Notes under the pieces: model-generated
Told to the model about the DNA's origin: nothing
What the model saw: only the letters and a program-made list of their open reading frames with translations
Databases searched by the model: none
Assembly: GCA_049997815.1 (NCBI GenBank)
Contig: JBEKVQ010000005.1
Location: 1 to 38,843, forward strand
Origin: Minisyncoccia bacterium
Lineage (GTDB): Bacteria; Patescibacteriota; Minisyncoccia; UBA6257; GWB1-50-10
Length of the DNA: 38,843 nt
Reading direction: 5' to 3'
Translations under genes and position numbers: made by a program
Part shown: positions 1 to 28,210 of the stretch, piece after piece
How the letters are laid out: each line of letters starts with the position of its first letter
Position numbering within the stretch: the stretch's first letter is position 1

Positions 1-2
1 CG

Positions 3-227
3 GAACACAAGATCAGACATCTTCTTAGTATCTACGGCAGGATGTACATTCAGGAATTCATTCCGCCGCTCTTAAGAGGGGATGGATACGTAGTCTATCG
101 ACTTATCTTGACCTTCAACCCGTCTCAGAAATGTTTCGAGCCGCTGGGTGGTTACTGGGTTGGAAGAAGAAATTTCAAAATTCACGGTACTCCCGACAGC
201 GTATTCGGACCACTCGTTCTGGCGTGA
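3..227 (+). CDS. C-terminal part of a hypothetical protein (possibly ATP-grasp-like), truncated by the window start
   Basis: Frame is open from base 3 (EHKIRHLLSIYGRMYIQEFIPP...) to TGA at 225-227. YIQEFIPP resembles an ATP-grasp motif. Followed by a terminator. Confidence 0.55.
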   Translation, partial: EHKIRHLLSIYGRMYIQEFIPPLLRGDGYVVYRLILTFNPSQKCFEPLGGYWVGRRNFKIHGTPDSVFGPLVLA

Positions 228-251
228 AAACATCGCGCCACGGGCGAATCC

Positions 252-290
252 AAGGGCAAACGTACAACCAAACGTTTGCCCTTTTTATTT
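252..290 (+). terminator. Rho-independent terminator
   Basis: AAGGGCAAACGT-8 nt loop-ACGTTTGCCCTT followed by a T-rich tract. Confidence 0.75.
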
Positions 291-333
291 AACTGTTGCA
301 CTCAATCTTCTTTTATTATATTTTGTAACCAAG

Positions 334-405
334 GGGCGTTTAGTTCAGTGGTAGAACGTTGCATTCACATTGCAAAGATCGCTGGTTCGATCCCAGCAAC
401 GCCCA
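334..405 (+). tRNA. tRNA-Val(CAC)
   Basis: Acceptor stem GGGCGTT/AACGCCC, D arm GTTC/GAAC, anticodon stem TTGCA/TGCAA with loop TT-CAC-AT, T arm GCTGG-TTCGATC-CCAGC. CCA not encoded. Confidence 0.97.
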
Positions 406-574
406 CAAACAAAAGAAGCTGGATAATATGCCAGATTCTTTTGTTTTATGGTGTCGGGGTCGAACCACGGAGAGGGGTCGGGAGAACACGCTCACGGTTT
501 CCCGTGTAGGAAAATAGCGAAGCGTTAGAAACCGAGGGTTTCTAAGGAGCGAAGCGACGTTCGATTCCCAGCAA
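385..574 (+). mobile_element. Putative ~174-bp non-coding mini-element integrated in the tRNA-Val 3' end
   Basis: GTTCGATCCCAGCAA (385-399) recurs as GTTCGATTCCCAGCAA (559-574). An inverted target-like copy lies at 452-466. Core 467-558 is homologous to the minus strand of 28026-28119. Confidence 0.7.
407..446 (+). terminator. Hairpin/terminator directly after tRNA-Val
   Basis: AAACAAAAGAA.CTGG-loop-CCAG.TTCTTTTGTTT. Confidence 0.6.
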
Positions 575-592
575 TGTTGCTATAATAAATCG

Positions 593-1057
593 ATGAAGCC
601 AAACTACATAATTATCCCCGTCATAACGATTCTCACCGCCGCAATCGGGAGCTGGCTTACGAGCGGGGGAATGAACTGGTATAAAACCGTCAATTTTCCA
701 TCCTGGACGCCGCCCGGCTCGGTTATCGGTTTAGTCTGGACCGTCATATTCATCTTGAGCGCGATTTCGGCGCTCATGGTCTGGAATCAAGCCGCTCACG
801 ATAACCGCCTCTGGTGGATTGCCGCCATATTCATTGCGAACGCTGTTTTAAACATTCTCTGGAGCTATTTATTCTTTAACCGGCACCTCATCGGTCCGGC
901 TGTCTGGGAGGCCGGTCTTCTAGGAATATCCGTCATCGCTTTGACCGTTCTGATATGGCCCATCTCCCGGCTCGCTTCGGTTTTTCTCTGGCCCTACGCC
1001 AGCTGGGTGATCTTCGCCACATACCTAACATATTCGGTCTGGTTCTTAAATCACTAA
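593..1057 (+). CDS. tspO: TspO/MBR family tryptophan-rich sensory protein
   Basis: WY..(V)..PSWTPP, VWT, LNILWSYLFF and PYASWVIFATYL motifs; five hydrophobic segments. Confidence 0.92.
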   Translation: MKPNYIIIPVITILTAAIGSWLTSGGMNWYKTVNFPSWTPPGSVIGLVWTVIFILSAISALMVWNQAAHDNRLWWIAAIFIANAVLNILWSYLFFNRHLIGPAVWEAGLLGISVIALTVLIWPISRLASVFLWPYASWVIFATYLTYSVWFLNH

Positions 1058-1089
1058 AACAATCGGGTTAATCTGCTACAATATTAGTC

Positions 1090-1647
1090 ATGCAAAATTT
1101 CGTTCCGAAAAAGATGTTCTTCACGAAAGGCGTGGGACGGCATAAGGAATATCTCCAATCGTTCGAGATGGCTCTCCGCGACGCAGGCATCCAGGAATAT
1201 AATCTGGTGCACGTAAGTTCCATCTTCCCGCCGAACTGCAAGCGCGTCTCGAGAGAGGAGGGAAAGAAATCGCTTGCACCCGGGCAAGTGGTTTTTTGCG
1301 TGATGGCTCGCGAAGCGACGAATGAACCCAACCGGCTCGTGGCCGCTTCGATCGGCTTGGCCCAACCGGCGGATTCCACCAATTACGGATATCTTTCCGA
1401 GCATCACAGCTTCGGCGAAACCGACAATAAGTGCGGGGAATATGCCGAGGACTTGGCCGCCACAATGCTCGCCACCACTTTGGGAGTGGAGTTCGATTCG
1501 GCCGCCGCCTGGGACGAACGAGAACAGGTCTATAAATCCTCCGGTAAAATAATCCGCACTACGAACATTACCCAGTCCGCGGAAGGGGACAAGAACGGGC
1601 TCTGGACGACCGTGGTCGCCGCCGCCGTCTTGGTGTCAGAGGACTGA
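1090..1647 (+). CDS. pdaD: Pyruvoyl-dependent arginine decarboxylase
   Basis: [23 protein letters not shown] (Ser-Ser self-cleavage site), YGYLSEHH, C-terminal WTTVVAAAV. Confidence 0.93.
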
Positions 1648-1653
1648 TTTCCG

Positions 1654-2235
1654 ATGAACATCTCGCGCGAAGATGCTTGGAAACTTTTGACGGAACATGT
1701 GCAAACGGAAAGTTTGCGCCGACATTGCTTGGCCGTTGAAGCCGCAATGCGCGCCTACGCGAAGAAATACGGCGAGGAAGAAGAACTCTGGGGGATCTGC
1801 GGATTGATTCACGACTTTGACTACGAAGAATTCCCTTTCTATAAAAACGAGCACGATTTAAACATTGCCGAAGGCCACCCCTTTAACGGCATAAAGATAC
1901 TGAAAGAGAAGAACTATCCGCCGGAAATCATCGAAGCGATACTGGGTCACGCGACTTATTCCGGCGTGCCGAGAAAAACACAGATGGCGAAATGTCTCTA
2001 TGCCGTGGACGAACTCTGCGGATTCGTAATGGCGCTCGCGCACATTCGGCCTGACAAACTGAGCGGGATGACGACGGAGTCGGTTGAGAGAAATCTGAAG
2101 AAAAAAGGATTCGCCGCAAAGATAGATAGGGGAGAAATTGAAAGGGGAACATCCGAACTTGGCGCGGACAGAGCCGAGCACATTAATCTCGTCATCGGAG
2201 CACTTCAGGCAATCTCCAAAGAACTAGGGTTCTGA
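1654..2235 (+). CDS. HD/HDIG-domain metal-dependent phosphohydrolase
   Basis: LRRHCLAVEAAM, GLIHDFDYE, AILGH and AVDELCG motifs. Confidence 0.88.
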   Translation: MNISREDAWKLLTEHVQTESLRRHCLAVEAAMRAYAKKYGEEEELWGICGLIHDFDYEEFPFYKNEHDLNIAEGHPFNGIKILKEKNYPPEIIEAILGHATYSGVPRKTQMAKCLYAVDELCGFVMALAHIRPDKLSGMTTESVERNLKKKGFAAKIDRGEIERGTSELGADRAEHINLVIGALQAISKELGF

Positions 2236-2236
2236 C

Positions 2237-2659
2237 ATGAAAAACTTAGGTATCTCTAAAGAGAACAAGGGTCGTGGAGTCGGCGTTATCTTAAGAGATA
2301 AAAAAATCCTTTTGATGCACCGCATTAAAGACGGCGAAGAGTATTTCACATTTCCGGGGGGCGGCATTGAAAATATTGAGACACCGGAAGAAACGGCGAA
2401 AAGAGAAGTAGAGGAAGAATTTTCTCTAAAAGTAATCAAGTGCAAGTTTCTTTTTGATATATTCAATAGGACCGGCAAGGAATATTATTTCCTCATAGAA
2501 GATTTTAACGGCGAACCGCAAATCGGCGGCCCTGAAAGACAAAGAATGAGCGAAAATAATTTTTATGAAGCCAAGTGGTTTAATCTTGAGGAAGGACTCA
2601 ATTTGAAGAATCTGTTCCCCGAAGAAGCGAGAAACAAATTAAAAGAACTGATCCTGTGA
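2237..2659 (+). CDS. NUDIX hydrolase
   Basis: Nudix box FPGGGIENIETPEETAKREVEEE. Confidence 0.9.
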   Translation: MKNLGISKENKGRGVGVILRDKKILLMHRIKDGEEYFTFPGGGIENIETPEETAKREVEEEFSLKVIKCKFLFDIFNRTGKEYYFLIEDFNGEPQIGGPERQRMSENNFYEAKWFNLEEGLNLKNLFPEEARNKLKELIL

Positions 2660-2781
2660 TCCCAGGAAGAAAAATAAAGTGGGGAATAGCCGTTTTTCGT
2701 ATCACAACGCAATGGCGTTTCAAGTGTGGATAACTAGCCAAAATAACCTTCAAAAAACATAGATAGAATCTAGCCATACCT

Positions 2782-2813
2782 AAACGAAGCGCTCCATAGG
2801 GGCGTTTTTGTTT
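2782..2813 (+). terminator. Probable terminator hairpin upstream of the dcw promoter
   Basis: AAGCGCTCC-ATA-GGGGCGTTT followed by a T-rich tail. Confidence 0.5.
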
Positions 2814-2824
2814 GGTAGGGAGGA

Positions 2825-2874
2825 TGATATAATTGTGTATGTAAGTGGGGGAAAGTGGATAACTATGGGGATAA
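2825..2874 (+). promoter_or_regulatory. mraZ/dcw promoter (extended -10) with MraZ-type direct repeats
   Basis: TGATATAAT at 2825-2833. (G/A)TGG units at 2845, 2855 and 2865 have 10-bp periodicity, as known for MraZ operators. Confidence 0.7.
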
Positions 2875-2896
2875 CCCCTAAATCTGGGGAAAACTA

Positions 2897-3328
2897 ATGA
2901 TTTTAGGAGAATACAAACATAGTTTAGACACTAAAGGCCGATTGGCGGTACCGGCTAAATTCCGAGAGAAACTCGGCGCCGGCGCCATCATTACCCGCGG
3001 CCTCGATAAGTGTCTTTTTATTTTCGGCGCGAACGAGTGGGAAGTTCTGGTTCAGAAACTCATGAATCTTCCGCTTGCCCAGGCGAATTCGAGAGCCTTC
3101 GTTCGATTGATGCTCGCAGGCGCAAGCGATGCGAAAGTGGACGCGCAGGGTCGCATATTGGTTCCGGATTATTTAAGAAAATACGCCGGATTGAAGAAGC
3201 AAGCGGTCGTCACGGGGCTCTACAATCGCATGGAGGTCTGGGACGAGGAAGAGTGGCAGGCCTACAAGCAGAAAACGGAGGCTTCATCCGATGAAATAGC
3301 GGAAAAATTGGGAGAATTGGGAATTTAA
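2897..3328 (+). CDS. mraZ: Division/cell wall cluster transcriptional repressor MraZ
   Basis: GEYKHSLDTKGRLAVPAKFR and DAQGRILVP repeats; first gene of the dcw cluster. Confidence 0.98.
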   Translation: MILGEYKHSLDTKGRLAVPAKFREKLGAGAIITRGLDKCLFIFGANEWEVLVQKLMNLPLAQANSRAFVRLMLAGASDAKVDAQGRILVPDYLRKYAGLKKQAVVTGLYNRMEVWDEEEWQAYKQKTEASSDEIAEKLGELGI

Positions 3329-3329
3329 A

Positions 3330-4220
3330 ATGCCCCACATCCCCGTTCTTTTAAAAGAGGTTGTGAAAGTGCTGGATCCGCATCCGGGAGAATTCATGAT
3401 AGACGGCACGCTCGGCAGCGGCGGACACGCGAAAGCGCTTTTGGAAAAAATGGGTTCGCGCGGAATGCTTCTCGGATTGGATTGGGATGAAAAGAATCTT
3501 GAAAGCTTTCGGAGAAATAATGAGGGAATGAAGGGAGGCCTTACTCTCGTTCATGAGAATTATGCGAACTTGCCCGAGATACTGGAGAAGCACCGGCTTT
3601 CCAAAGCCGATGGTTTGCTTCTGGATCTGGGATTCTCGAACGAACAATTGGAACACTCCGGCCGAGGATTCAGCTTCTTGAAGAATGAACCGCTCGATAT
3701 GCGCTACGATGCCGAAGACGAAGAAAGGCCGACGGCGGCAAGCATCATAAGCAGCCTATCCGAAAAAGAACTGGCCGACATCATCTATGAATACGGCGAA
3801 GAAAGATTTTCCCGGCAGATAGCCAAAAAGATAATCGAGCGCCGGAGGCGGGGAAGAATAACGACGACGGAAGAATTGGCTAACGTCATCCGAAGCGCGG
3901 TCCCGAAGAACTACGAGCACGGCCGCATCCATCCCGCGACGAGAACGTTTCAGGCACTCCGGATACACGTGAACAACGAGCTCGGCAATCTTAAGACCAT
4001 CCTCGGGAAACTGCCGGAGATAATGGACAAGGGCGGCCGGGTCGCCATCATCTCGTTCCATTCTCTCGAAGACCGGCTGGTGAAGATAAACTTTCAAAAC
4101 CTCGTCAAAGACAAAAAGGCTTCGTTTATAAACAAGAAACCGATAACGGCAGGCCGGGAAGAAGCAAAAAACAATCCCAAAAGTCGCTCGGCGAAGCTCC
4201 GAGCAATAAAAATAATTTAA
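3330..4220 (+). CDS. rsmH: 16S rRNA m4C1402 methyltransferase RsmH
   Basis: HIPVLL, DGTLGSGGHA, PLDMR, HPATRTFQALRI, ISFHSLEDR and SRSAKLR motifs. Confidence 0.98.
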   Translation: MPHIPVLLKEVVKVLDPHPGEFMIDGTLGSGGHAKALLEKMGSRGMLLGLDWDEKNLESFRRNNEGMKGGLTLVHENYANLPEILEKHRLSKADGLLLDLGFSNEQLEHSGRGFSFLKNEPLDMRYDAEDEERPTAASIISSLSEKELADIIYEYGEERFSRQIAKKIIERRRRGRITTTEELANVIRSAVPKNYEHGRIHPATRTFQALRIHVNNELGNLKTILGKLPEIMDKGGRVAIISFHSLEDRLVKINFQNLVKDKKASFINKKPITAGREEAKNNPKSRSAKLRAIKII

Positions 4221-4222
4221 CA

Positions 4223-4540
4223 ATGACCATAATCAGACCCATACAAACGAAAAACGGATTCCGATTCCTGTTCCTGTTCTTTTTGACCATATTCGTAAGT
4301 GGAATCTTCTACGTTTTGGAGTATAATTCATTCGTGAGCGCCCGTTACCAGGTGAATTCGCTCAAGAAACAGCTCGCGGACGTAAGCGCGACGAACACGG
4401 ATTTGAAGAGCCAGCTTTATAAGATGACCGACCCCGTGCAACTGCAAACGCTCGCCGCAAAGTACAATCTCACCCTGGAACGGAAACCGCAATATTTGAA
4501 CCAAAACCAATGGGTGTCCGTTTCCTCCTACTCACAATAG
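4223..4540 (+). CDS. ftsL: Cell division protein FtsL-like
   Basis: Single TM followed by a coiled coil; located between rsmH and the PBP gene. Confidence 0.65.
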   Translation: MTIIRPIQTKNGFRFLFLFFLTIFVSGIFYVLEYNSFVSARYQVNSLKKQLADVSATNTDLKSQLYKMTDPVQLQTLAAKYNLTLERKPQYLNQNQWVSVSSYSQ

Positions 4541-6123
4541 CTTTCGGCATTCTATTCGGGCTCCTTGGCCTGAATATCTACAGTCTTCAAATACAAAAAG
4601 GGGGGTATTACGTGAACAAAGTCCAAGCGAGGGACGAGGCCTTGGCCCAACTGCAACTGCGGCGAGGCCAGATTTTTTTTAACGATAAATACGGAAATAA
4701 CATAACGGTAGCCCTAAATAAGGATTATCCGGTCATTTATGGAGTGCCCAAGGAGGCGGCGGACCCGCAGAAAACGGCGGAAACTCTTTCGCCTATTTTG
4801 AACAAGCCGGTCCAGGAATTGAAAGACGATCTCGACGACCCGACAAGCCTGTTCCATATGGTCGACGAAAAAGTCTCCCAGGAAGAATTGGATGCGGTTC
4901 AGGCGCTTAATCTGCCTGGAATTTACGAAAGCACCAAGCAATATCGATTTTATCCATTCGAGAACTTGGGAGCTCAGCTTCTGGGTTTCGTTGGGTTGAA
5001 CAAGGACACGAGTGCCCCGAAGGGCCTTTATGGCACGGAAAAAAATTACGATGCCCCGCTCGCGGACGGGCATGATATAGCTCTTACGATAGACAGAAAT
5101 CTCCAAGCCCAGGCCGAGCAGATGATTGAAAAGCTTGTGAACGACCACCAGGCGGAGAGCGGGAACGTCATAATCGAAGAACCGAAGACGGGAAAAATCC
5201 TCGCCATCGCCGATTACCCGAATTTCGACCCAAACAACTATAAAAACTATCCGATAAAGGATTTCATAAACTCGGCGGTGCAACTGGTCTACGAACCCGG
5301 CTCGGTCTTCAAGCCCATCACCATGGCGGCGGGAATAGATGCGGGCATCATAACGCCTACGTCCACTTACACCGATTACGGCCACGTTACCATAAACGGA
5401 AAGACCATCACCAACTGGGACCACAAGGCCTACGGACCGAATACCACAATAACCCAGGTCATCGAACGCTCCATCAACACTGGAGCGGTCTTCGCCGAAC
5501 AGAAGATAGGTCGGCCTACTTTCTTGAGTTATCTGAAACTCTTCGGCTTGGGCGTCAAAACCGGCATTGATTTACCGGATGAAGTCACGGGCAGTTTGGC
5601 AAATTTGGAGCGGAAGGGTGCTCAAGACATCGATTACGCCACGGCTGCCTACGGTCAAGGCACTTCGGTCACGCCGCTTCAGATGATAAACGCTTTCTCG
5701 GTCTTCGCGAACGGCGGGTTGCTTATGAGGCCCTACATCAATGCCGATTCGGAACCCTTTGTCGTACGCCGGGTAATAAGCGAGGACACGGCCAAAAAGG
5801 TGATAGAAATGATGCGGTCGGCAGTGGAAAAAGGAGGGGTCGCGACCATCCCGCAATTCAACGTGGCGGGCAAAACCGGCACGGCTTTCATTCCGGATTT
5901 CGTGCACGGCGGATATCTGCCGGACGATTACATCCATACCTTTATAGGGATGGCGCCGTCCACGAATCCCCAGTTCGTGATAATGATAAAGCTCGAAAAG
6001 CCGGAGGTGGGCAAGGAATTGGCGGCACTCACCGTGGTCCCGGCCTTTCAGCAATTGGCCGCCTTCGCTTTGAATTATCTGAATATAACTCCAGATAATA
6101 TCCAAACGCCGAGCAGCAAATAA
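4510..6123 (+). CDS. ftsI: Class B penicillin-binding protein (FtsI/PBP3-like transpeptidase)
   Basis: N-terminal TM, RGQIF, YEPGSVFK (SxxK), SIN (SxN) and GKTGT motifs; dcw position. Confidence 0.9.
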   Translation: MGVRFLLLTIAFGILFGLLGLNIYSLQIQKGGYYVNKVQARDEALAQLQLRRGQIFFNDKYGNNITVALNKDYPVIYGVPKEAADPQKTAETLSPILNKPVQELKDDLDDPTSLFHMVDEKVSQEELDAVQALNLPGIYESTKQYRFYPFENLGAQLLGFVGLNKDTSAPKGLYGTEKNYDAPLADGHDIALTIDRNLQAQAEQMIEKLVNDHQAESGNVIIEEPKTGKILAIADYPNFDPNNYKNYPIKDFINSAVQLVYEPGSVFKPITMAAGIDAGIITPTSTYTDYGHVTINGKTITNWDHKAYGPNTTITQVIERSINTGAVFAEQKIGRPTFLSYLKLFGLGVKTGIDLPDEVTGSLANLERKGAQDIDYATAAYGQGTSVTPLQMINAFSVFANGGLLMRPYINADSEPFVVRRVISEDTAKKVIEMMRSAVEKGGVATIPQFNVAGKTGTAFIPDFVHGGYLPDDYIHTFIGMAPSTNPQFVIMIKLEKPEVGKELAALTVVPAFQQLAAFALNYLNITPDNIQTPSSK

Positions 6124-6130
6124 CCACCTC

Positions 6131-7438
6131 ATGAAACAGCTGATCTTAAAAATATTGACGTTGAAACTGCGGCTCATTGCGAAGCTGACGATTCGCCGCT
6201 ATAAACCGAGCATTATCGGCGTAACGGGAAACGTCGGCAAAACTTCCGCGAAGATGGCCATCTACGCGGCCCTTGCGGGCGATCGGAGTGTCCGCGCATC
6301 ATCCAAAAACTTCAATAACGAACTCGGCCTGCCGCTGAATATCATCGGGGATTGGGAAAAAACGGGCGGAGTTTTCTTTTGGCTGAAGGTCGTTGCTTTC
6401 GGCCTCGGGCAGTTGCTCATCAGAAATCCAAAGTACCCCGAGATACTTATCCTTGAATATGGCGTGGACAGGCCCGGCGATATGAACTATCTTCTCGGCG
6501 TGGCTCGGCCCCAAATGGGCGTCATCACGGCGGTGGGAAACGTACCGGTGCACGTGGAATTCTTCAGCGGACCCGACGGTGTGGCGAAAGAAAAATCAAA
6601 ACTCATCGTTCAGTTACCCACGACCGGCTTCGCGATTTTGAATGCCGATGACCCCCTGGTCCTTAAAATGGCGGAAGATACGCGCGGCCGCGTTATAACC
6701 TACGGCTTTTCGGATAAGGCCGACATAAAAATATTAAGCTTCAGTAACCGCTCGGATATCGACACCGGAGAGGCAGGCATTTCATTCAAAATAAACTACA
6801 ACGGGAAAATTGTGCCGCTCAAAATACCGAATGTGCTCGGAAAAACGGCCGCCTATGCTTCAGCCGCAGGCGCCGCCGTGGGACTTATCTTCGGCGTGAA
6901 TCTCGTGAAAATTGCGGAGAATCTCGGCAAAATGGAAACACCCGCTGGCCGGCTTCGGGTAATGCCGAGTATTAAGGGCTCGTTCATCATTGACGACACA
7001 TATAACGCCTCGCCGCTCGCTATGAGGGAGTCGCTTGAAATATTCAAAGGCCTCAAGGCTAAAAGAAAGATTGCCGTACTCGGGGATATGTTGGAAATCG
7101 GGAAATACACCATGGAAGCGCACGAAGAGATAGGAACGCTGGCCGCCAATCGCGTGGACATGCTCCTCACGGTAGGCCTGCGCGGGAAATTCATCGCGGA
7201 AGGCGCACTTAAAAACAAGATGCCCAAGAACGCGGTCTTTACCTTCGACGACATTCACGACGCCGGGCACTTCCTTCAGGAAAAATTAAGAAGCGGAGAC
7301 GTAGTACTTCTGAAGGCCTCGCAGGGCGTGCGGATGGAGAAAGTGGTCAAGGAAATTATGGCCGAACCCCTCCGCGCCGGCGAACTTCTGGTCCGCCAGG
7401 ACAAAACATGGCTTGAAAAACAGGGGATGTACGAGTAA
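6131..7438 (+). CDS. murF: UDP-N-acetylmuramoyl-tripeptide--D-Ala-D-Ala ligase MurF
   Basis: GVTGNVGKTS P-loop, NFNNELGLPL, DDTYNASP, VLGDMLEIG and LLKAS motifs. Confidence 0.95.
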   Translation: MKQLILKILTLKLRLIAKLTIRRYKPSIIGVTGNVGKTSAKMAIYAALAGDRSVRASSKNFNNELGLPLNIIGDWEKTGGVFFWLKVVAFGLGQLLIRNPKYPEILILEYGVDRPGDMNYLLGVARPQMGVITAVGNVPVHVEFFSGPDGVAKEKSKLIVQLPTTGFAILNADDPLVLKMAEDTRGRVITYGFSDKADIKILSFSNRSDIDTGEAGISFKINYNGKIVPLKIPNVLGKTAAYASAAGAAVGLIFGVNLVKIAENLGKMETPAGRLRVMPSIKGSFIIDDTYNASPLAMRESLEIFKGLKAKRKIAVLGDMLEIGKYTMEAHEEIGTLAANRVDMLLTVGLRGKFIAEGALKNKMPKNAVFTFDDIHDAGHFLQEKLRSGDVVLLKASQGVRMEKVVKEIMAEPLRAGELLVRQDKTWLEKQGMYE

Positions 7439-7469
7439 GGTAGTTATAAGTTACAGGTCATTTGCATAT

Positions 7470-7541
7470 GGCGCTTTCGTCTAGTGGCTAGGACACGACG
7501 TTCTCAACGTCGGAACATGGGTTCAATTCCCGTAAGCGCTA
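7470..7541 (+). tRNA. tRNA-Glu(CTC)
   Basis: Acceptor stem GGCGCTT/AAGCGCT, anticodon stem CGACG/CGTCG with loop TT-CTC-AA, T arm ATGGG-TTCAATT-CCCGT. CCA not encoded. Confidence 0.97.
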
Positions 7542-7706
7542 CAAGTATAAAATGCTCACCTTAGGTGGGTATTTTATACTTTATACATCGGGAATTGAAC
7601 GGAACTTTCGCGCCTGCGGGGCAGGATGAAGCGAAAGTCCGTGGCTTCGGAGGAGCTTTTTGCTTTAGCCAAAAAGCGGGGGAGAAGAATTCCCGTAAGC
7701 GCTACA
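7525..7706 (+). mobile_element. Putative ~163-bp non-coding mini-element integrated in the tRNA-Glu 3' end
   Basis: Exact 19-bp direct repeat AATTCCCGTAAGCGCTACA (7525-7543 and 7688-7706). CGGGAATTGAAC (7589-7600) is the exact reverse complement of tRNA 7521-7532. Hairpin-rich core between them. Confidence 0.72.
7543..7581 (+). terminator. Hairpin/terminator directly after tRNA-Glu
   Basis: AAGTATAAAATGCTCACC-TTA-GGTGGGTATTTTATACTT, an 18-bp stem allowing G-U pairs. Confidence 0.65.
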
Positions 7707-7724
7707 CAAATATAAATGGGGGGG

Positions 7725-7756
7725 GCCTACCCGCCGAAGCTTTAGCGAAGTAGGGC
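7725..7756. repeat. REP-like short imperfect palindrome
   Basis: GCCTACCCGCCGAAGCTTTAGCGAAGTAGGGC, with CCTAC/GTAGG ends. Resembles dispersed 'CCGCCGAAGCTTTAGCGAAGG'-type repeats I recall from groundwater bacteria; one copy in this window. Confidence 0.45.
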
Positions 7757-7815
7757 AACTCTCCGTGGGACGTTAGAACTTTTTTCCGGAAGAAAGCCCG
7801 GGAAGAAGACCACGC

Positions 7816-10800
7816 TTACTGCGCTAAAAGTTTATTAATATATGTGCGGGTTAACGGGCCAAAAAAGCCGATGGCTGGTTTGATGCCCGCCTTTTTCTGA
7901 AACTCTGCGAGTGCACTATTGGTAAGGCTACCGAAATATCCAGTTGCGCCGGCATGGGCGAGCCGTTTTGTAGATGCTCCTGCATTATAACCAATCAGAA
8001 ATTTCTGAAGTCTAATTACGTCATTGCCATACAAACCAACCGAAAGATTATGCATAAAAAGGACTATTGGTATTGGCGGAAATGCAGGTGGAGTGGGCGG
8101 GGGCGTAGAGATGGGGTTACTGTTTGAAGCCGTAACTGTTGGCCACGAAGCAGGTACCCAAACAGCCCCTCCAGCTCCTGCTTGCCCCCCAAATGTTGTG
8201 TCAACTTGAAGGTCAGGATTGCCTCCCATGGCAACCCAAGCGCCTTGACCAGCTGAGTTACTTGTTCTTGCTTGCCAATGATAAGTTGTTCCCGCCATGG
8301 TTAAACCAGTGACAGTGACTGCTCCAATTACTGGAGAACCAGAATAAGAAACAGCATTCCCGGAATTAGTGACGGTGCCACTGAATGCCGTTCCGTTTTC
8401 TTGAACCTCCGCTTGTGGAGTAAGCAAATCAGAAATATTTCCAGAAGACATACCAAACTTAAGCGTTACGGCTGACCCGCCAGTAAAAGACCCTGGCCCC
8501 GGGGTTATTGTCGTTATTCCGTCAGATTTGTATTGAGCCAGTGAAGAGGGAGAACCGGGCAAAAGAAATTCATAGGCCCCAATGTCCGGTGCCGTTCCTT
8601 GAGGACGGGATGTGCCGACAAAATCACTGACAAATCCAGTGATTGTGCCCCCGGAATTAATTAGCGGGGAAGTCGATAGCAAATGAAAGTCCCCAGTTCC
8701 CGAATTTACGAACGCTGGATCAGCGCCAGACCAAGTAGTGCTTCCGGTATCAGTGTAAGTTCCTGTCCCGCCCCTACCGGAGTTTTTGAACCAATTATTG
8801 CTGCCGGTAAGTGTTGCCCCTGCCCCAATAAAAATATCACTTGTTGTTGAGTTGTAAACGACATTATTTTTCAAAGTTGCGTTAGAAGCGGCATTAAAAC
8901 CGTATCTGCCCGAACCAAATATTGTGTTGTAGTAATAATTTAAACCCGCGCTACCGCTACTAATGATTGCGTCGTTTGTTAATCCGTTGAAAATGGAGTC
9001 GTGTAAGTTAATATTGTAACTGCTACTAGAAATTAAAGCTCCGTTGTTTCCACCAAATTTGAAGTCGCCAATGTCCAGATAATTGTAGTCGTTTGTATTT
9101 AATGCCCCTCTATTATCAAAAGGAAGTTTGCCAAATTTAAAATCATCGATGTAAAAAGTAATGGGATTTTGGTAAGCATAAAAATATATCGCATTTAATT
9201 TCCCACCAGCAGTTATAGTTTCTATTCCGTTGACATTAAGCCATAATTGATTATCTATGTACATTTTAAAACTGCCACTCGTTGAATGAAGATAATCTTC
9301 GATATACATTTTATGCCAATTTCCGCTAGTAATACTTTTCCTGCTCGGAATTGTCCAATTGCTATTTTGGGGCGCATCTAAAACAATTTCGTTTGAATAA
9401 CGTGATGTGCTAGAAGGTGCAAGCGTGAGTCTCAGCTCGTAGCTTGAGTTATCCAAAATACGAAACATGTTTTGATCACTACTAGATGTTTGATCGGTAG
9501 GATAATAGAACCAGTAACTAACATACATTGTATCCCCTTCATTTATATTAGTTGCAACCACGTTCTTTAGGCTTAGAGAAACTGTACCTGATGCTCCTCG
9601 AACAACCTTGGCGGATTGTGCTCCTTCGTGAAAAATCGAAGTATCTGCTGTAATCGAACCGCCAGCTTGGTTAAAAGTAAAATTCCATGAGCTCGTTGCA
9701 CTTTCAAATGTTTCGGCTACAGCTGGTGTATTTGCTAAGTTTCCCCCAGAAAAAGTTGAGGTCGTATTCCCCCTCAAAGAAATATTACTCGTTCCGTTTC
9801 CGCTCCACCCCGCAATAAGGGGGCTACTGTAAGTATTTGTGCCAGCGAAACTAACAGTATCTCCCGGCTGAACATCTAATAATTCAAGATAATTAAGTGT
9901 TTTTATAGGTCTTGCTGAAGTGATTCCAAAGTTAGTCCAATCGACCCCATTGGTTCCATCAACATAAAAGGTTGTATTAGTTGGTATGACTCTTCCTATT
10001 GTGGCCCTTAATACCCCGCCCCAGCCATCTCCATAACCGTACAATCCACTCCAGTTTGTGGCATAATGCGAAGCCAAACCGGTGTACTCTGCTCCGTGTG
10101 ATGTGGCGCTGCTGCCAAAATCTTTAACTACTGTCCACGTTGTCCCATGGTCACTTGATACCACAATTTGATTTACATAGTTATTTGTACAAGACCATTC
10201 ATTAATGCCTATTGAACTAAAAACTATATTGCCCGCATCGTCTACATCAGCCCATCCCCAATAACCACATCCGGCAAGTGGGTAGACAACGTTTATAGTT
10301 TGAGTGAAATTATCATCTGTTATCCTTGCGATTGCTCTGGTTTTAGTTCCATATGGCGAGTGCATATCCATACCCACATAAATATAATTAGCATCTGAAG
10401 TTATTGCTGTAACTTCTACCGGAGTTGCGTCCGAAAAAGTTGGCAGAATAAAACTAAAATCACTGGCGGAGATTCCGTCTGCGTTTATTTTATTTGATGG
10501 CAGTTTTAAAATTCCATGATCTTGGTCACCAATTGCAACATAAAGAGCGTCACGATATGGGTCATAATAAACTTGATGAATATGATCTTCTGGCGGTGCC
10601 CAGTTGGCTACATTTGTCCAAGTTCCGTTTGGTCGCCTTCTCCATAAATGACCACCGGTCGTCAAAGTGTGTGTTGTATATTCTCCGGCCCACACATTTC
10701 CGTATTTATCTTCCGTAAAGTTCCATATTTTCCCGGTGCTGGTGGCATCAACGAATTGTTGCACCGGAGTGAAGTTTAATCCATCGGTACTTTCGAAAAT

Positions 10801-25869: not shown

Positions 25870-27984
25870 ATGCCGAAAAAAACCGTTCCGAAAAAAAACG
25901 TAGAGCCGGTTATCGTTGACGTAAGGAAACCGAACTTCAATTACGAACGGCTCAACAAACCGCAGAAACTCAATCTGGCTCACATACCCCGGGCCAAGCC
26001 GCCCCGTTTCATAATTTTAAAAAGAACGCTTCTCGCGATACTTTTCGCCGGACTTTTCGGCCTTGTTGCCGCAATCGTGCTGGTTGTGATAAATCTCCAA
26101 ACGATAAGGGCCACAGTAACGGAGAGCAGTGGGCAGATAATCAGTAATTTCGCTTCGTCAGCCAGTGCGCTCAAAAGTTTTGAACCGGATACGGCCGTAA
26201 ATCTGCTTCAGGAGAACGATCAGTCATTTTCGGACATCAATAACGCCATAAAGAAGGGTGGCATCCAATCGTTCCTGAGCGCCGTCGGCAACCTTATTCC
26301 GATGGTGAGCAATGCATTCGGGTTTCTCGGACAAGCGACGAACCTAAACATAACTTTCTTGGAACTGGCCCAAAACATCCAAGATTTGGAAACGAACGGC
26401 TTCAAATATTTTCAAAGCGATGGACAGGGCCTCTTAACCGCGCTAAAAAACACCCATACCCTAATCCAGCAGATCAGCGAGAAAAGCCAGGACGTGAAGA
26501 ACAGCACCACGAACCTGAAGAGTCTATCGCCGCTCTTCGGAAAAATAGATCAGGACGTAAGCGACCAATATTTGAAATACTCGAGCGAGCTTTTTACCTG
26601 GGACAAGATGCTCGTTAATCTCACGAACCTCCTGGGTTCGGAAACCGACCGCCATATCCTCGTCTTCTTCCAAAATCCGTCGGAGGTCCGCCCGGGCGGG
26701 GGATTCATCGGCAGCTATGCCGATATAACGGTAAATAGCGGCCAAATGAAACAGATGGATGTGCACGACATCTACGACCCCGACGGCCAACTCGCCTTAA
26801 AGGTCATCCCGCCGGAACAACTTCAGACCGTTACGACCGATTGGGGCGCCCGGGATGCCAACTGGTTCTTCGACTTTCCAACCTCCGCCAAGACCGTCAT
26901 CCGGTTCATGGAGGCCTCCAAAATGTATTCGGAAAAGAACGTGACGTTCGATGCCGCCATTGCTTTGAACATAAACGTCGTGAACGACCTGCTCTCCGTA
27001 ACGGGCCCGATACAACTTACGGATTACAATCTGACGATAGACCAGAATAATCTTCTTGAGGAGGTTCAGCGTTCAGTCGAGGCCGGCGCGGACAAAAAAG
27101 CCGGTCAGCCGAAGAAGATATTGATGAAATTGGCTCCCATTCTGCTTCAAAAATTGAACGACCTTTCCACCGCCGACCGGCAAACTCTGTTCGACCGGAT
27201 AAAAGAACGAATAGCGAAAAAGGACATAATGCTTTACGCCAAGGATCCCGATATGGCCGCATTCCTGTCGACGAACGATCTGGACGGTTCGGTTTACGAA
27301 ATGCCGAATAATTTCTGGGGAACGTACCTCGCGGTCGCGAATGCGAACGTCGCGGGCGGCAAGAGCGACGCCTTTGTGGACGAGAGGGTGACCGCGAACG
27401 TGGACGTGGATACGAACGGAAATACTTTCACGAACGTGCAGGTCGCGCGAACCCACAACGGGAATCTAGAGAAAGACCCCTGGTGGAAGGCAACTAACAA
27501 CGATTTCATGCAGATATTCGCCGAACCGAACTCAACGCTGGTTGCGATGACGGGGAACGACGTTAAGCCAAAGTACCAAACAATGGACTACACTAACTCC
27601 AATTACATGACGAATCCGGACTTGGCGGCGACGGAAAAGGGAGAGATCTTCCTCTCCAATCTGAAGACCTGGCTTCGCAACGAATTCGGAAAGAACGTCT
27701 TCGCCACATGGCTCTTGCTTCCGGCCGGCCAAACCAAAACCTTGAACGTTCAGTACCAAACCACCTATAATAGCCCGACTGCCCTGGGCCCGGGCCAGGC
27801 CTACACTTTCATCTTCGAAAGGCAGGCCGGAGTGAAGAACAGTTTGGATGTGACGGTGAATGCACCCTTCAAATATTACTGGGCCGAATCTAACGACACC
27901 GCTTTCCATTATACGAACGACGATCCGGACAAGAGAACGACTCTCACGCTTACTCTGAAGAAGAAGACGGACGACCAACAATAA
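25870..27984 (+). CDS. DUF4012 domain-containing membrane-anchored protein
   Basis: TM anchor; FQNPSEVRPGGGFIGSY, RDANWFFDFPTSA and NVAGGKSD motifs. Confidence 0.88.
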   Translation: MPKKTVPKKNVEPVIVDVRKPNFNYERLNKPQKLNLAHIPRAKPPRFIILKRTLLAILFAGLFGLVAAIVLVVINLQTIRATVTESSGQIISNFASSASALKSFEPDTAVNLLQENDQSFSDINNAIKKGGIQSFLSAVGNLIPMVSNAFGFLGQATNLNITFLELAQNIQDLETNGFKYFQSDGQGLLTALKNTHTLIQQISEKSQDVKNSTTNLKSLSPLFGKIDQDVSDQYLKYSSELFTWDKMLVNLTNLLGSETDRHILVFFQNPSEVRPGGGFIGSYADITVNSGQMKQMDVHDIYDPDGQLALKVIPPEQLQTVTTDWGARDANWFFDFPTSAKTVIRFMEASKMYSEKNVTFDAAIALNINVVNDLLSVTGPIQLTDYNLTIDQNNLLEEVQRSVEAGADKKAGQPKKILMKLAPILLQKLNDLSTADRQTLFDRIKERIAKKDIMLYAKDPDMAAFLSTNDLDGSVYEMPNNFWGTYLAVANANVAGGKSDAFVDERVTANVDVDTNGNTFTNVQVARTHNGNLEKDPWWKATNNDFMQIFAEPNSTLVAMTGNDVKPKYQTMDYTNSNYMTNPDLAATEKGEIFLSNLKTWLRNEFGKNVFATWLLLPAGQTKTLNVQYQTTYNSPTALGPGQAYTFIFERQAGVKNSLDVTVNAPFKYYWAESNDTAFHYTNDDPDKRTTLTLTLKKKTDDQQ

Positions 27985-28145
27985 TGAATAACATCAGGAA
28001 TTTTTGCATAATTGCCCAGATAGACGTCGCGAGTTGCCACACGGCAACTCGCTCCCTAACACCCAGCGGTTTTAGTATTTCCGCCACGGGAAAACTCCCG
28101 TTTTCCCGACCCCTTTCCCGTCAATGTGGGCAAACAAAACAATAA
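27984..28145 (+). pseudogene. Displaced lepA 5' end (14 codons) continuing as a 53-aa ORF through the inserted element
   Basis: MNNIRNFCIIAQID versus LepA MNNIRNFCIIAHID; ATG overlaps the upstream stop codon (TAATG). Confidence 0.75.
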
Positions 28146-28210
28146 TCAACTGACCATCGGACAAATCTATGAACAATATAAGAAACTTCTGCATCATTGC
28201 CCACATTGAC
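28026..28210 (-). mobile_element. Putative 185-bp mini-element integrated in the lepA 5' end and supplying a replacement start
   Basis: Target duplication 27984-28025 / 28169-28210. GTCAATGTGGGCAA (28120-28133) is the exact reverse complement of 28197-28210. Core is homologous to 467-558. Confidence 0.75.

Follow-up and report, generated by a model that had tools for sequence, protein, structure and literature searches.

A protein-less insertion element that replaces the ends of essential genes in Patescibacteria and may act as a folded single strand

Genomic islands and prophages that occupy tRNA and tmRNA genes depend on integrases that cross over within a 7-nucleotide (nt) stretch of the T-loop, and replacement of the gene end with displacement of the resident end as a direct repeat is the classical outcome. 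Insertion sequences (IS) of the IS200/IS605 type move through a single-stranded DNA (ssDNA) intermediate, and their cleavage or target site is read by a short guide that lies beside a protein-bound hairpin. For the phage CTXφ, two inverted target-like sites approximately 90 bp apart are described as yielding a forked hairpin with a single strand exchange (PMC3089051), and integration as leaving one working and two dead sites (PMC3089051; PMC3442271). Here we report an element that we compare with these systems, found in a 38,843-nt stretch (hereafter the window, to which all coordinates refer) of contig JBEKVQ010000005.1 from a Minisyncoccia bacterium with a 744-kb genome that is 99.24% complete (G000). 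It is a widespread, non-autonomous, protein-less insertion element of approximately 165–185 nt that replaces the ends of essential genes in Patescibacteria, ultra-small bacteria with tiny genomes that account for a large and little-understood share of bacterial diversity, and it is undescribed in the literature as far as we searched.

The element has a constant order. A replacement gene end (R, the restored, working copy), which includes the terminator or the gene start, is followed by a short spacer that varies between copies, an inverted copy of the start of R (the arm, the reverse complement of its first 10–25 nt), a linker of about 6 nt and a conserved folded core. Insertion occurs at a fixed point of a conserved gene, such that the gene now runs on into R, and its resident end (D) comes to lie behind the core. 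The resulting gene-end repeat is 20–75 nt long. Spacers differ between copies and mostly form terminator-like hairpins just before the arm. In all eight loci that were checked by open frames, which included S9 gene ends, two other 3' ends, a GTPase 5' start and another 5' start, R was the copy joined to the gene body. The window contains three copies with this layout, which are located behind tRNA-Val, behind tRNA-Glu and at the start of lepA. With Rfam 15 at gathering score, the whole window matched the three tRNAs only, and Rfam in E-value mode gave only weak snoRNA and miRNA matches for the Val and lepA copies, all below gathering scores.

By analogy, CTXφ and the related integrative mobile elements exploiting Xer (IMEX) provide an apt model of how this element might work. 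Both groups have inverted target-like sequences about 90 nt apart (87–94 nt here) that can be folded to a duplex target, and both lack an integrase of their own, the Xer-type enzyme being the only tyrosine recombinase of the present genome. In contrast, the targets here are tRNA, tmRNA, lepA, typA, S9 and other gene ends rather than dif, arm and target vary with each copy, about 170 nt of noncoding sequence stand in for a phage genome, a conserved multi-helix core takes the place of the fork, and the gene end is replaced. Integron attC sites are similar in their imperfect inverted repeats (..AAC / GTT..) around a variable structured center and in mismatches near the putative crossover, and by analogy the folded single strand would be recognized by its shape. 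However, we found no integron integrase, attI, cassette array or cassette open reading frame (ORF) here; the arms correspond to the chromosomal target instead of conserved R''/R' boxes (RYYYAAC ... GTTRRRY), and it is the center rather than the ends that is conserved. A preliminary description of this DNA, made from the letters alone, had likened the element ends to integron attC and CTX-phage attP sites; membership in either class does not hold on the defining features, as there is no IntI, no R box and no dif.

Comparison with the remaining systems likewise gave partial overlap. Like tRNA and tmRNA islands and their cis-mobilizable derivatives (CIMEs), the element brings a gene 3' part that completes the gene and displaces the resident part as a direct repeat, but it is about 100-fold smaller, carries no cargo, uses many unrelated targets that include GTPase 5' ends, and has an inverted arm and a conserved fold, and no matching integrase was found. 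With IS200/IS605 and palindrome-associated transposable elements (PATEs) it would share an ssDNA intermediate, and it shares the lack of a target duplication from staggered cuts, whereas its guide measures 10–25 nt rather than 4, it carries a gene end, and neither Y1 nor TnpB was found in G000. The bridge (seek) RNAs of IS110/IS1111 resemble it in a programmable choice of target by complementarity within a structured non-coding part of approximately 100–180 nt; unlike those elements, ours has a single arm instead of two internal loops, a long gene-end duplication and no evident promoter, and no DEDD transposase was found. It differs from miniature inverted-repeat transposable elements (MITEs) in that the inverted arm copies the local target and there are no fixed terminal inverted repeats; moreover, the repeat is a gene end of 20–75 nt rather than a short target-site duplication, and at lepA one of its two copies is foreign.

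The origin of each gene end could be read from the lepA copy. In three genomes of the same genus (G002, G004 and G001), the lepA site is empty and the lepA ATG directly overlaps the stop codon of the upstream gene. In the window, this overlap is retained by D, which consists of the first 14 codons of lepA (27984–28025, plus strand), holds the native position and is identical to the closest relative, G002, at 17 of 17 positions in one stretch. Next to D is the core (28026–28113, minus strand; nhmmer E=1.4e-13, also recovered with the covariance model), which belongs to the family that we call GGGGTC, ends in GCGAC directly at the junction (GCGAC|GTC) and contains the GGGA loop that the preliminary description had pointed out. 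The arm, which reads TTGCCCACATTGAC on the minus strand (28120–28133), is followed by a 35-nt spacer unlike the native upstream sequence (28134–28168, plus strand) and by R, the working lepA start (28169–28210, plus strand). R is a foreign allele that differs from D at no fewer than 10 of 42 positions and is closer to another lineage (four differences to G004). Beyond the junction, the gene body again resembles the closest relative, and the switch from foreign to resident sequence occurs within 15 nt of the junction. Because D is native-like and both R and the spacer are foreign, we conclude that R, spacer, arm and core were imported together and that D is the resident end. The distinction between a restored and a displaced copy that had been proposed from the letters is thus borne out at lepA, as is the stated match of the arm, which agrees with R at 14 of 14 positions and with D at 12 of 14. 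Copying of arm and R from the local target at insertion, as in template switching, is excluded at this locus by the differences between R and D (at least 10 of 42). D keeps its ATG in the native position for translational coupling and could still encode a short peptide running into the core antisense. The G1 motif in D has changed from His to Gln, and the same change is found in the displaced typA start on contig C12 and in L023.

The Val copy presents the same arrangement in a decayed state. The working tRNA-Val(CAC) gene, called by ARAGORN like the other tRNA genes (334–406, plus strand; Rfam tRNA, 73.1 bits), contains R as the part from G53 onward (385–406, plus strand), which was located in a circular fold. 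Behind it lie a spacer with a terminator-like hairpin, which also appears in the fold, and a T run (407–450, plus strand) and then the arm GTGTCGGGGTCGAAC (451–465, plus strand), which ends in ..GAAC(C) and is an inverted copy of the tRNA from G53 (GTTCGA..). This arm is degenerate, with seven contiguous matches and about 13 of 17 overall; the tRNA is matched in reverse complement by its 3' part, where C465 is the partner of G385. The linker between arm and GGGGTC measures 8 nt, within the family range of 3–9 nt (mode 6). The GC-rich core (474–558, plus strand; nhmmer E=4.6e-14, covariance model R1 E=6.1e-15) starts with GGGGTCGGG, ends in GCGAC (554–558) and contains the GCGAAGC mini-hairpin at 517–523 and 549–555. 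Sequence comparison identified D, GTTCGATTCCCAGCAATG (559–576, plus strand), as a decayed tRNA-Val 3' end with one extra T after position 7 and an acceptor part that no longer corresponds to the tRNA. At positions 451–576 we recognize an old and probably immobile copy of the element, represented by its arm, its core and its displaced target; both the arm and the displaced end have decayed, and the copy is fixed in the sampled population. Contigs of four sequencing runs (X4, X5, X7 and X8) compared with window positions 1–8000 were identical across the Val and Glu copies, with no joint there, and small insertions at 516–523 in read contigs were attributed to cross-mapping of other copies, which are 85% alike. 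Identical tRNA-Val genes without the element occur in G004, G001 and G024, with flanks too diverged to define the exact empty site. In G004 (L141), a homologue of the window ORF 1090–1647 follows the identical tRNA-Val after approximately 100 nt, and both the element and the window ORF 593–1057 are missing from that locus.

What the preliminary description had stated about the letters of the three copies was correct throughout: the left arms end in ..GAAC(C) at Val, ..GAAC at Glu and ..TGAC at lepA, the Val core holds GCGAAGC twice at the positions above, the right junction resumes with GTT at Val (from 559) and GTC at lepA immediately after GCGAC, and the spacing between arm and junction, given as 87–94 nt, measured 93 (Val), 87 (Glu) and 94 nt (lepA). 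Only the Val interval moved, by 1–2 nt, from 452–574 to 451–576.

The Glu copy has the same layout with a different core. Behind the tRNA-Glu(CTC) gene (7470–7542, plus strand), with its restored 3' part R (7521–7543, plus strand; from sequence and circular fold), the arm GGGAATTGAAC (7590–7600, plus strand) is the reverse complement of the T-loop GTTCAATTCCC at 11 of 11 positions. The core (7601–7687, plus strand), which ends in GGGGGAGAAG, is unrelated to the GGGGTC core and gave no match to the family profile, and D, AATTCCCGTAAGCGCTACA (7688–7706, plus strand), resumes at tRNA position 57 as a direct repeat with a spacing of 163. Of the 41 related genomes, 8 contain homologues of this second core, which follow tRNA-Gly, Ser, Ala, Pro and Leu in the same layout, and in the copies viewed the repeat boundary is likewise at tRNA position 57. 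The preliminary treatment of the three copies as one element thus stands for Val and lepA, which share the GGGGTC core, and for Glu it stands for the layout and not for the core. About 75 nt behind a tRNA-Val in G021 (L144, contig C43), a neighboring tRNA has behind it a third, unrelated GC-rich core of approximately 85 nt, which is arranged as in the others, with restored end, hairpin spacer, arm, core and displaced end.

A profile search with nhmmer (E<1e-6) recovered 13 copies of the GGGGTC core in the 744-kb genome, the Val and lepA copies among them, a recurrence at that threshold that is far beyond chance. The occupied tRNA genes are those for Leu, Met, Trp, Val, Pro and Arg, each with the core behind it; lepA and typA have a copy at the 5' end, and a ribosomal-protein gene has one at the 3' end. 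Another four copies in the genome are degenerate or rearranged. Using a covariance model, we found the core in 26 of 41 related genomes, with 0–21 copies each, and the counts within the genus were 13, 4, 0, 0 and 1. A pattern scan of genome contigs returned at least 121 stretches, and all 80 titles among the matches listed were Patescibacteria or metagenome-assembled genomes without a taxon name. Most placements involve tRNA genes, with 69 of 125 cores less than 200 nt behind a same-strand tRNA of one of many species, and the other targets include tmRNA, the lepA and typA starts, the S9 gene end and further gene ends. Copies that appear young have R and D identical over 23–53 nt (L004 over 53 nt; L022), and tandem units occur at L082.

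Several loci depart from this arrangement. In L134 (G000:C9:12842-12937), L130 (G000:C3:69333-69428) and L001, a variant core that starts with CAAAAGGGGGTC is convergent to a tRNA gene, with a terminator hairpin between the core 3' end and the tRNA 3' end, a sense-like partial tRNA 3' half 5' of the core and no clean displaced copy; this variant may have arisen from the element by rearrangement or may be a mirror form of it. At L051, behind tRNA-Lys, a direct repeat of approximately 105 nt that comprises the tRNA 3' part, spacer, arm and linker is present on both sides of the core, and the second unit ends within about one base of the expected core start, which hints that the 5' core edge can also be a precise joint. 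In addition, (A)GCGAAGC(G) recurs in L002, L006, L008, L029, L040, L075, L081 and other loci at three set places, which are behind GGAAR at the P3 position, ahead of the terminal GCGAC and, in the displaced T-loop, right behind position 59, and looks like either a separate small insertion process or a favored stabilizing module.

The arm follows the target at every locus. Arm and junction sequences change together with the gene that is occupied (GTTCGA, GTCAAT, GCAGCA, GGAGCA, CTGCAA and others), and the position of the arm is fixed. Among 67 tRNA-linked copies, 59 have an arm that complements tRNA positions 53–61 with no more than two mismatches; in these 59, the nucleotide complementary to G53 is 6 nt upstream of GGGGTC in 34 and 5–8 nt upstream in 57, and the arm is 10–25 nt long in 57 and 4 and 6 nt in the remaining two. 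A few members use other points of the T-arm (e.g., L099 unit 2 and L119). The arm stops exactly at G53 in 36 of the 59 and extends by 1, 2 or 3 nt in 14, 6 and 3, which amounts to a weak excess over chance only, and we rejected the idea that the arm spans the junction. A role as a tRNA primer-binding site was also rejected, since the arms do not reach the discriminator and CCA and some targets are protein genes. We compared arm, R and D in 53 distinct tRNA-linked triples: the arm was more complementary to R in 45, equally so in 7 and more complementary to D in 1. The preliminary description had singled out a better match to the restored copy, a fixed crossover position and covariation in the stems as tests of its proposal, and the data agree with it on all three: R is favored in most triples, the arm sits at position 53 in 59 of 67 copies, and the two helices P2 and P4 covary strongly.

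Beside the core, a zone of 7 nt behaves differently from the rest of D. In the 53 triples, D equals R at G53 in 53, at T54 in 50, at T55 in 20, at C56 in 20, at position 57 in 48, at 58 in 46 and at 59 in 36, and at each of positions 60–71 in at least 47, a figure partly imposed by the way in which D was located. Insertions in D follow position 59 in 16 cases and position 58 in 6. The first 7 nt of D are identical to R in only 6 of 53 and read GTGAGAT in 19 of 53, and 35 of 47 altered 7-mers are then followed by 12 unchanged nt. Distal divergence was equal for copies with an altered (0.36 mismatches) and an unaltered 7-mer (0.33), which indicates that the change is not ordinary decay. A comparable zone was seen in 15 copies at non-tRNA targets, two of which proved tRNA-like, with 6, 7, 5 and 10 mismatches between R and D at positions 4–7 and 2 at position 8. 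Certain altered 7-mers recur, such as GTTTGAT in both tandem units of L082 and in L051, and GTCTAYY at three GTPase loci. In most copies, the zone is mismatched against the arm; folded attC and CTX attP sites likewise have an imperfect or mismatched center. One reading is that the 7 nt are the crossover (overlap) region, with copies that lack identity unable to excise and hence persisting. The other is that the 7-mer is the element's own 3' end and that the true joint lies between positions 7 and 8. On both readings, the zone has the length of a tyrosine-recombinase overlap region. The most common change in D, TC to GA, gives a tandem G·A pair with the GA of the arm, which suggests that an arm:D helix of the integrated copy is also kept.

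The core consists of helices P2 and P4, optional hairpins and a possible pseudoknot. In P2, individual pairs are AU in some copies and GC in others (64/57 and 97/20 at two of the pairs), its loops are of the GNNA type in 30 of 119 copies, and position 6 of P4 is GC in 53, AT in 34, TA in 22 and CG in 9, such that Watson-Crick pairing is kept in 118 of 119. The candidate pseudoknot, which would join the P4 loop to the segment that follows P2, can pair in 87 of 119 copies, 47 of them through G·U, and as T-A in 28 of 33 T-bearing copies. With DNA parameters, the sense strand gave the better fold in 103 of 118 copies and the antisense strand in 10, and the corresponding numbers with RNA parameters were 86 and 30. 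A check of strand bias through G-T/G-U pairs, which the preliminary description had proposed, gave only a weak bias (12 GU versus 3 AC in P2, and 7 versus 10 in P4), and a count of 113 versus 27 from minimum-free-energy folds was set aside, as it overstates a bias that is small within the covariation-supported helices. Upon in-silico circularization, the arm paired with R and the core folded apart. Glu and lepA thus gave the pairing proposed for an excised circle under either parameter set (DNA or RNA), and Val gave it under the RNA set alone; the outcome is largely a consequence of the inverted repeat itself.

A folded single-strand attachment site is plausible, and we consider DNA more likely than RNA as its material. 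No conserved promoter was found before the arm, and the terminator that usually lies just before it argues against read-through transcription of arm and core. Orientation relative to target transcription is inconstant, being sense where the 3' end of a gene is the target and antisense at the 5' ends of GTPase genes. GCGAAGC, which recurs in the element, is described as an extraordinarily stable DNA mini-hairpin (PMC13037366). On these four grounds we favor DNA.

We also looked for an enzyme that could act on the element. The genome encodes one tyrosine recombinase, which is XerA/XerC/XerD-like (XerA model, 242.7 bits; cut-off 220); an integron integrase was not found in G000, where this sole tyrosine recombinase scored 125.1 bits against a cut-off of 265. 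The Xer/IntI-like recombinases to which the preliminary description had looked hence reduce to a housekeeping Xer type without IntI, and any tyrosine-recombinase partner must be this Xer, as it is the only one. A Xer-type gene is present in 39 of 41 genomes, usually in single copy and regardless of the element. No conserved sequence resembling a Xer half site flanks the junction, and because the arms change with every target and the targets are neither dif nor attI, sequence-specific binding by Xer or IntI cannot explain target choice. Other candidates in the genome were one large serine recombinase, two reverse transcriptases, two small GIY-YIG genes and a 399-aa GIY-YIG open frame, which we take to be UvrC from its length. 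The serine recombinase occurs in 15 of 41 genomes, is uncorrelated with the element and was not found in G019, G024 and G036, which have 21, 14 and 15 copies. Reverse transcriptases occur in 19 of 41 genomes, including the element-free G002, G003, G012, G018 and G020, and were not found in G019 (21 copies), G023, G009, G034 and G040. GIY-YIG genes are present in 40 of 41 genomes whatever the element count, in multiple copies in most, and lie outside the element where adjacent; in G008, which has three element copies, the sole GIY-YIG match is a 447-aa open frame, presumably of the UvrC length class. All three were rejected as mobilizers. Within G000, the IS110 DEDD transposase (PF01548), the Y1 transposase (PF01797) and TnpB (PF07282) were not found. 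Among the 80 loci for which 2-kb flanks were available, no enzyme gene recurred within 1.5 kb of the core; besides the target genes, clustering of the neighbors returned only small GIY-YIG genes (five) and YraN genes (four), none of them within the element.

Some of these genes have surroundings of their own. At G000:C1:66482-70982, a group-II-intron-like or diversity-generating-retroelement-like reverse transcriptase (354 aa) lies approximately 2 kb from the large serine recombinase (448 aa), and the second, retron-type reverse transcriptase is at C7:23425-24318. In G007, G023 and G024 (e.g., L154: 432-674), small GIY-YIG genes of 80–130 aa are present in multiple copies, up to 16 in G007, and are often directly beside tRNA genes, as if mobile themselves.

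From the fixed junction, the co-variation of arm and target and the folded core, we infer a route of recombination that runs through a single-stranded form with an enzyme supplied in trans. The recombining form would be a folded single strand, of DNA more probably than of RNA, whose arm would pair with a target-like sequence and so restore a target duplex directly next to the conserved core. Strand exchange would take place within the zone of about 7 nt at the junction, the enzyme would read the core and not the target sequence, and replication would fix the product. We hold this reading tentatively, at somewhat less than an even chance. A broader proposal, which we regard as doubtful, is that the element represents a new class of programmable mobile DNA, in which an enzyme, perhaps one with a housekeeping role, reads a conserved fold of about 90 nt, a self-encoded complement of the target (10–25 nt) directs insertion at an exact bond in almost any sequence, and the element survives in essential genes by carrying the gene end that it replaces.

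A number of observations weigh against recombination of a folded single strand. No enzyme was found, and the Xer-type gene is present equally in genomes with many copies and with none; known Xer relatives bind specific 11-bp half sites, and the targets here share no sequence. As modeled, the folded junction comprises a 4-bp helix and a purine bulge of about 10 nt, unlike a Xer or IntI site. We saw neither an excised circle nor a polymorphism between empty and filled sites, with the contigs of the four runs identical through the Val and Glu copies. The bias of G-T over A-C pairs is mild (12 GU versus 3 AC in P2, and 18 versus 8 among arm:R mismatches). The TC to GA change keeps a tandem G·A, and an arm:D helix may therefore matter, which the excised-circle model does not need. 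The joint acquisition of a new target, its R and its arm is left unexplained, and all counts are inflated by phylogenetic non-independence.

If arm and core were instead transcribed, the arm could serve as a guide of 10–25 nt 5' of a protein-binding scaffold, with which an RNA-guided enzyme would cut or recombine the target. Such a layout resembles the guide RNAs of IscB and Cas9 or the bridge RNAs of IS110, and the co-variation of the arm with every target at a set distance from the scaffold (6 nt in 34 of 59), the compensatory helices, the GNNA loops of P2 (30 of 119), the candidate pseudoknot (87 of 119, 47 with G·U) and the better folding of the sense strand are all as expected of an RNA, which would be a new one given the lack of an Rfam match. 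However, a terminator hairpin usually lies directly upstream of the arm in tRNA-linked copies, where a conserved promoter was not found, the orientation to target transcription differs between 3'-end (sense) and GTPase 5' (antisense) sites, R matches the guide perfectly and self-targeting is thus not avoided, and the recurring GCGAAGC is, as noted above, described as a highly stable mini-hairpin of DNA. Moreover, no IS110, TnpB or Y1 gene was found in the 99%-complete genome, and no reverse transcriptase was found in element-rich genomes such as G019 (21 copies); we consider an RNA guide unlikely. The import of a foreign R at lepA, the lack of any enzyme that correlates with the element and its patchy occurrence even within one genus would also fit a cassette that homes by homologous recombination, with no dedicated enzyme and with RecA-type copying of taken-up DNA through the flanks of gene body plus R and of D; the arm would fold onto R, such that D rather than R pairs with the target. 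The targets rank with the most conserved of bacterial sequences (tRNA T-arm and acceptor, tmRNA end, GTPase G1 motif and S9 C-terminus), and the same altered 7-mers stand beside the core at different loci as if carried there (GTGAGAT in 19 of 53, GTTTGAT, GTCTAYY). We nevertheless judge both the copying and the pairing through D distinctly improbable, as they leave unexplained how new targets come with an arm ending exactly at the junction and a fixed linker over dozens of unrelated targets, and why a folded core of 75–100 nt is under strong purifying selection; in addition, the homology offered by D spans only about 20 nt and is often broken in its first 7 nt, and the foreign-to-resident switch at lepA lies within 15 nt of the junction.

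Gene-end replacement with a displaced direct repeat is also what a tRNA T-loop integrase classically leaves, and the element could be a double-stranded miniature integrative element of the CIME or MITE kind, a deletion derivative of an island that retains only attL and attR and is served by an integrase from elsewhere. The genome does contain one large serine and one tyrosine recombinase, and tandem units occur (L082). Against this stand the absence of a longer, gene-carrying relative among the 80 loci with 2-kb flanks, the distribution of the serine recombinase (15 of 41 genomes, and not in G019, G024 and G036), and the number of unrelated targets, more than 25, which is beyond what a sequence-specific integrase can serve; the inverted arm and the conserved single-strand-type fold would be left without a role, and we give this account little credence. 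Equally little can be said for an element that does not move today, one that benefits the host as a terminator, an RNA-stability element or a protein-binding element and whose duplications are old scars. The Val copy is indeed decayed and fixed, with the contigs of four other runs identical through it, the core is under purifying selection, and TC to GA preserves the arm:D helix as tandem G·A. But close relatives have between 0 and 21 copies, the lepA and tRNA-Val sites are empty within the same genus, young copies have R and D identical over 23–53 nt (L004 and L022), and unrelated core families share one layout.

Recombination of a folded single strand, read by an enzyme supplied in trans, remains the reading that we favor, and for it the 7-nt zone marks where strand exchange should be sought. 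For annotation, displaced gene ends and pseudo-starts such as the 14-codon lepA fragment at 27984–28025 are to be read as scars of the element, and working gene ends may be foreign. If the core and arm do act as programmable DNA, they would constitute a minimal targeting device without a protein gene, and their partner would be a new guide-directed recombinase or nuclease, which could yield a new site-specific, programmable insertion chemistry. If the element is mobile in the manner proposed, then Patescibacteria host a type of mobile element without a gene of its own, which chooses its targets by complementarity and sits harmlessly in tRNA, tmRNA, translation-GTPase and ribosomal-protein genes.

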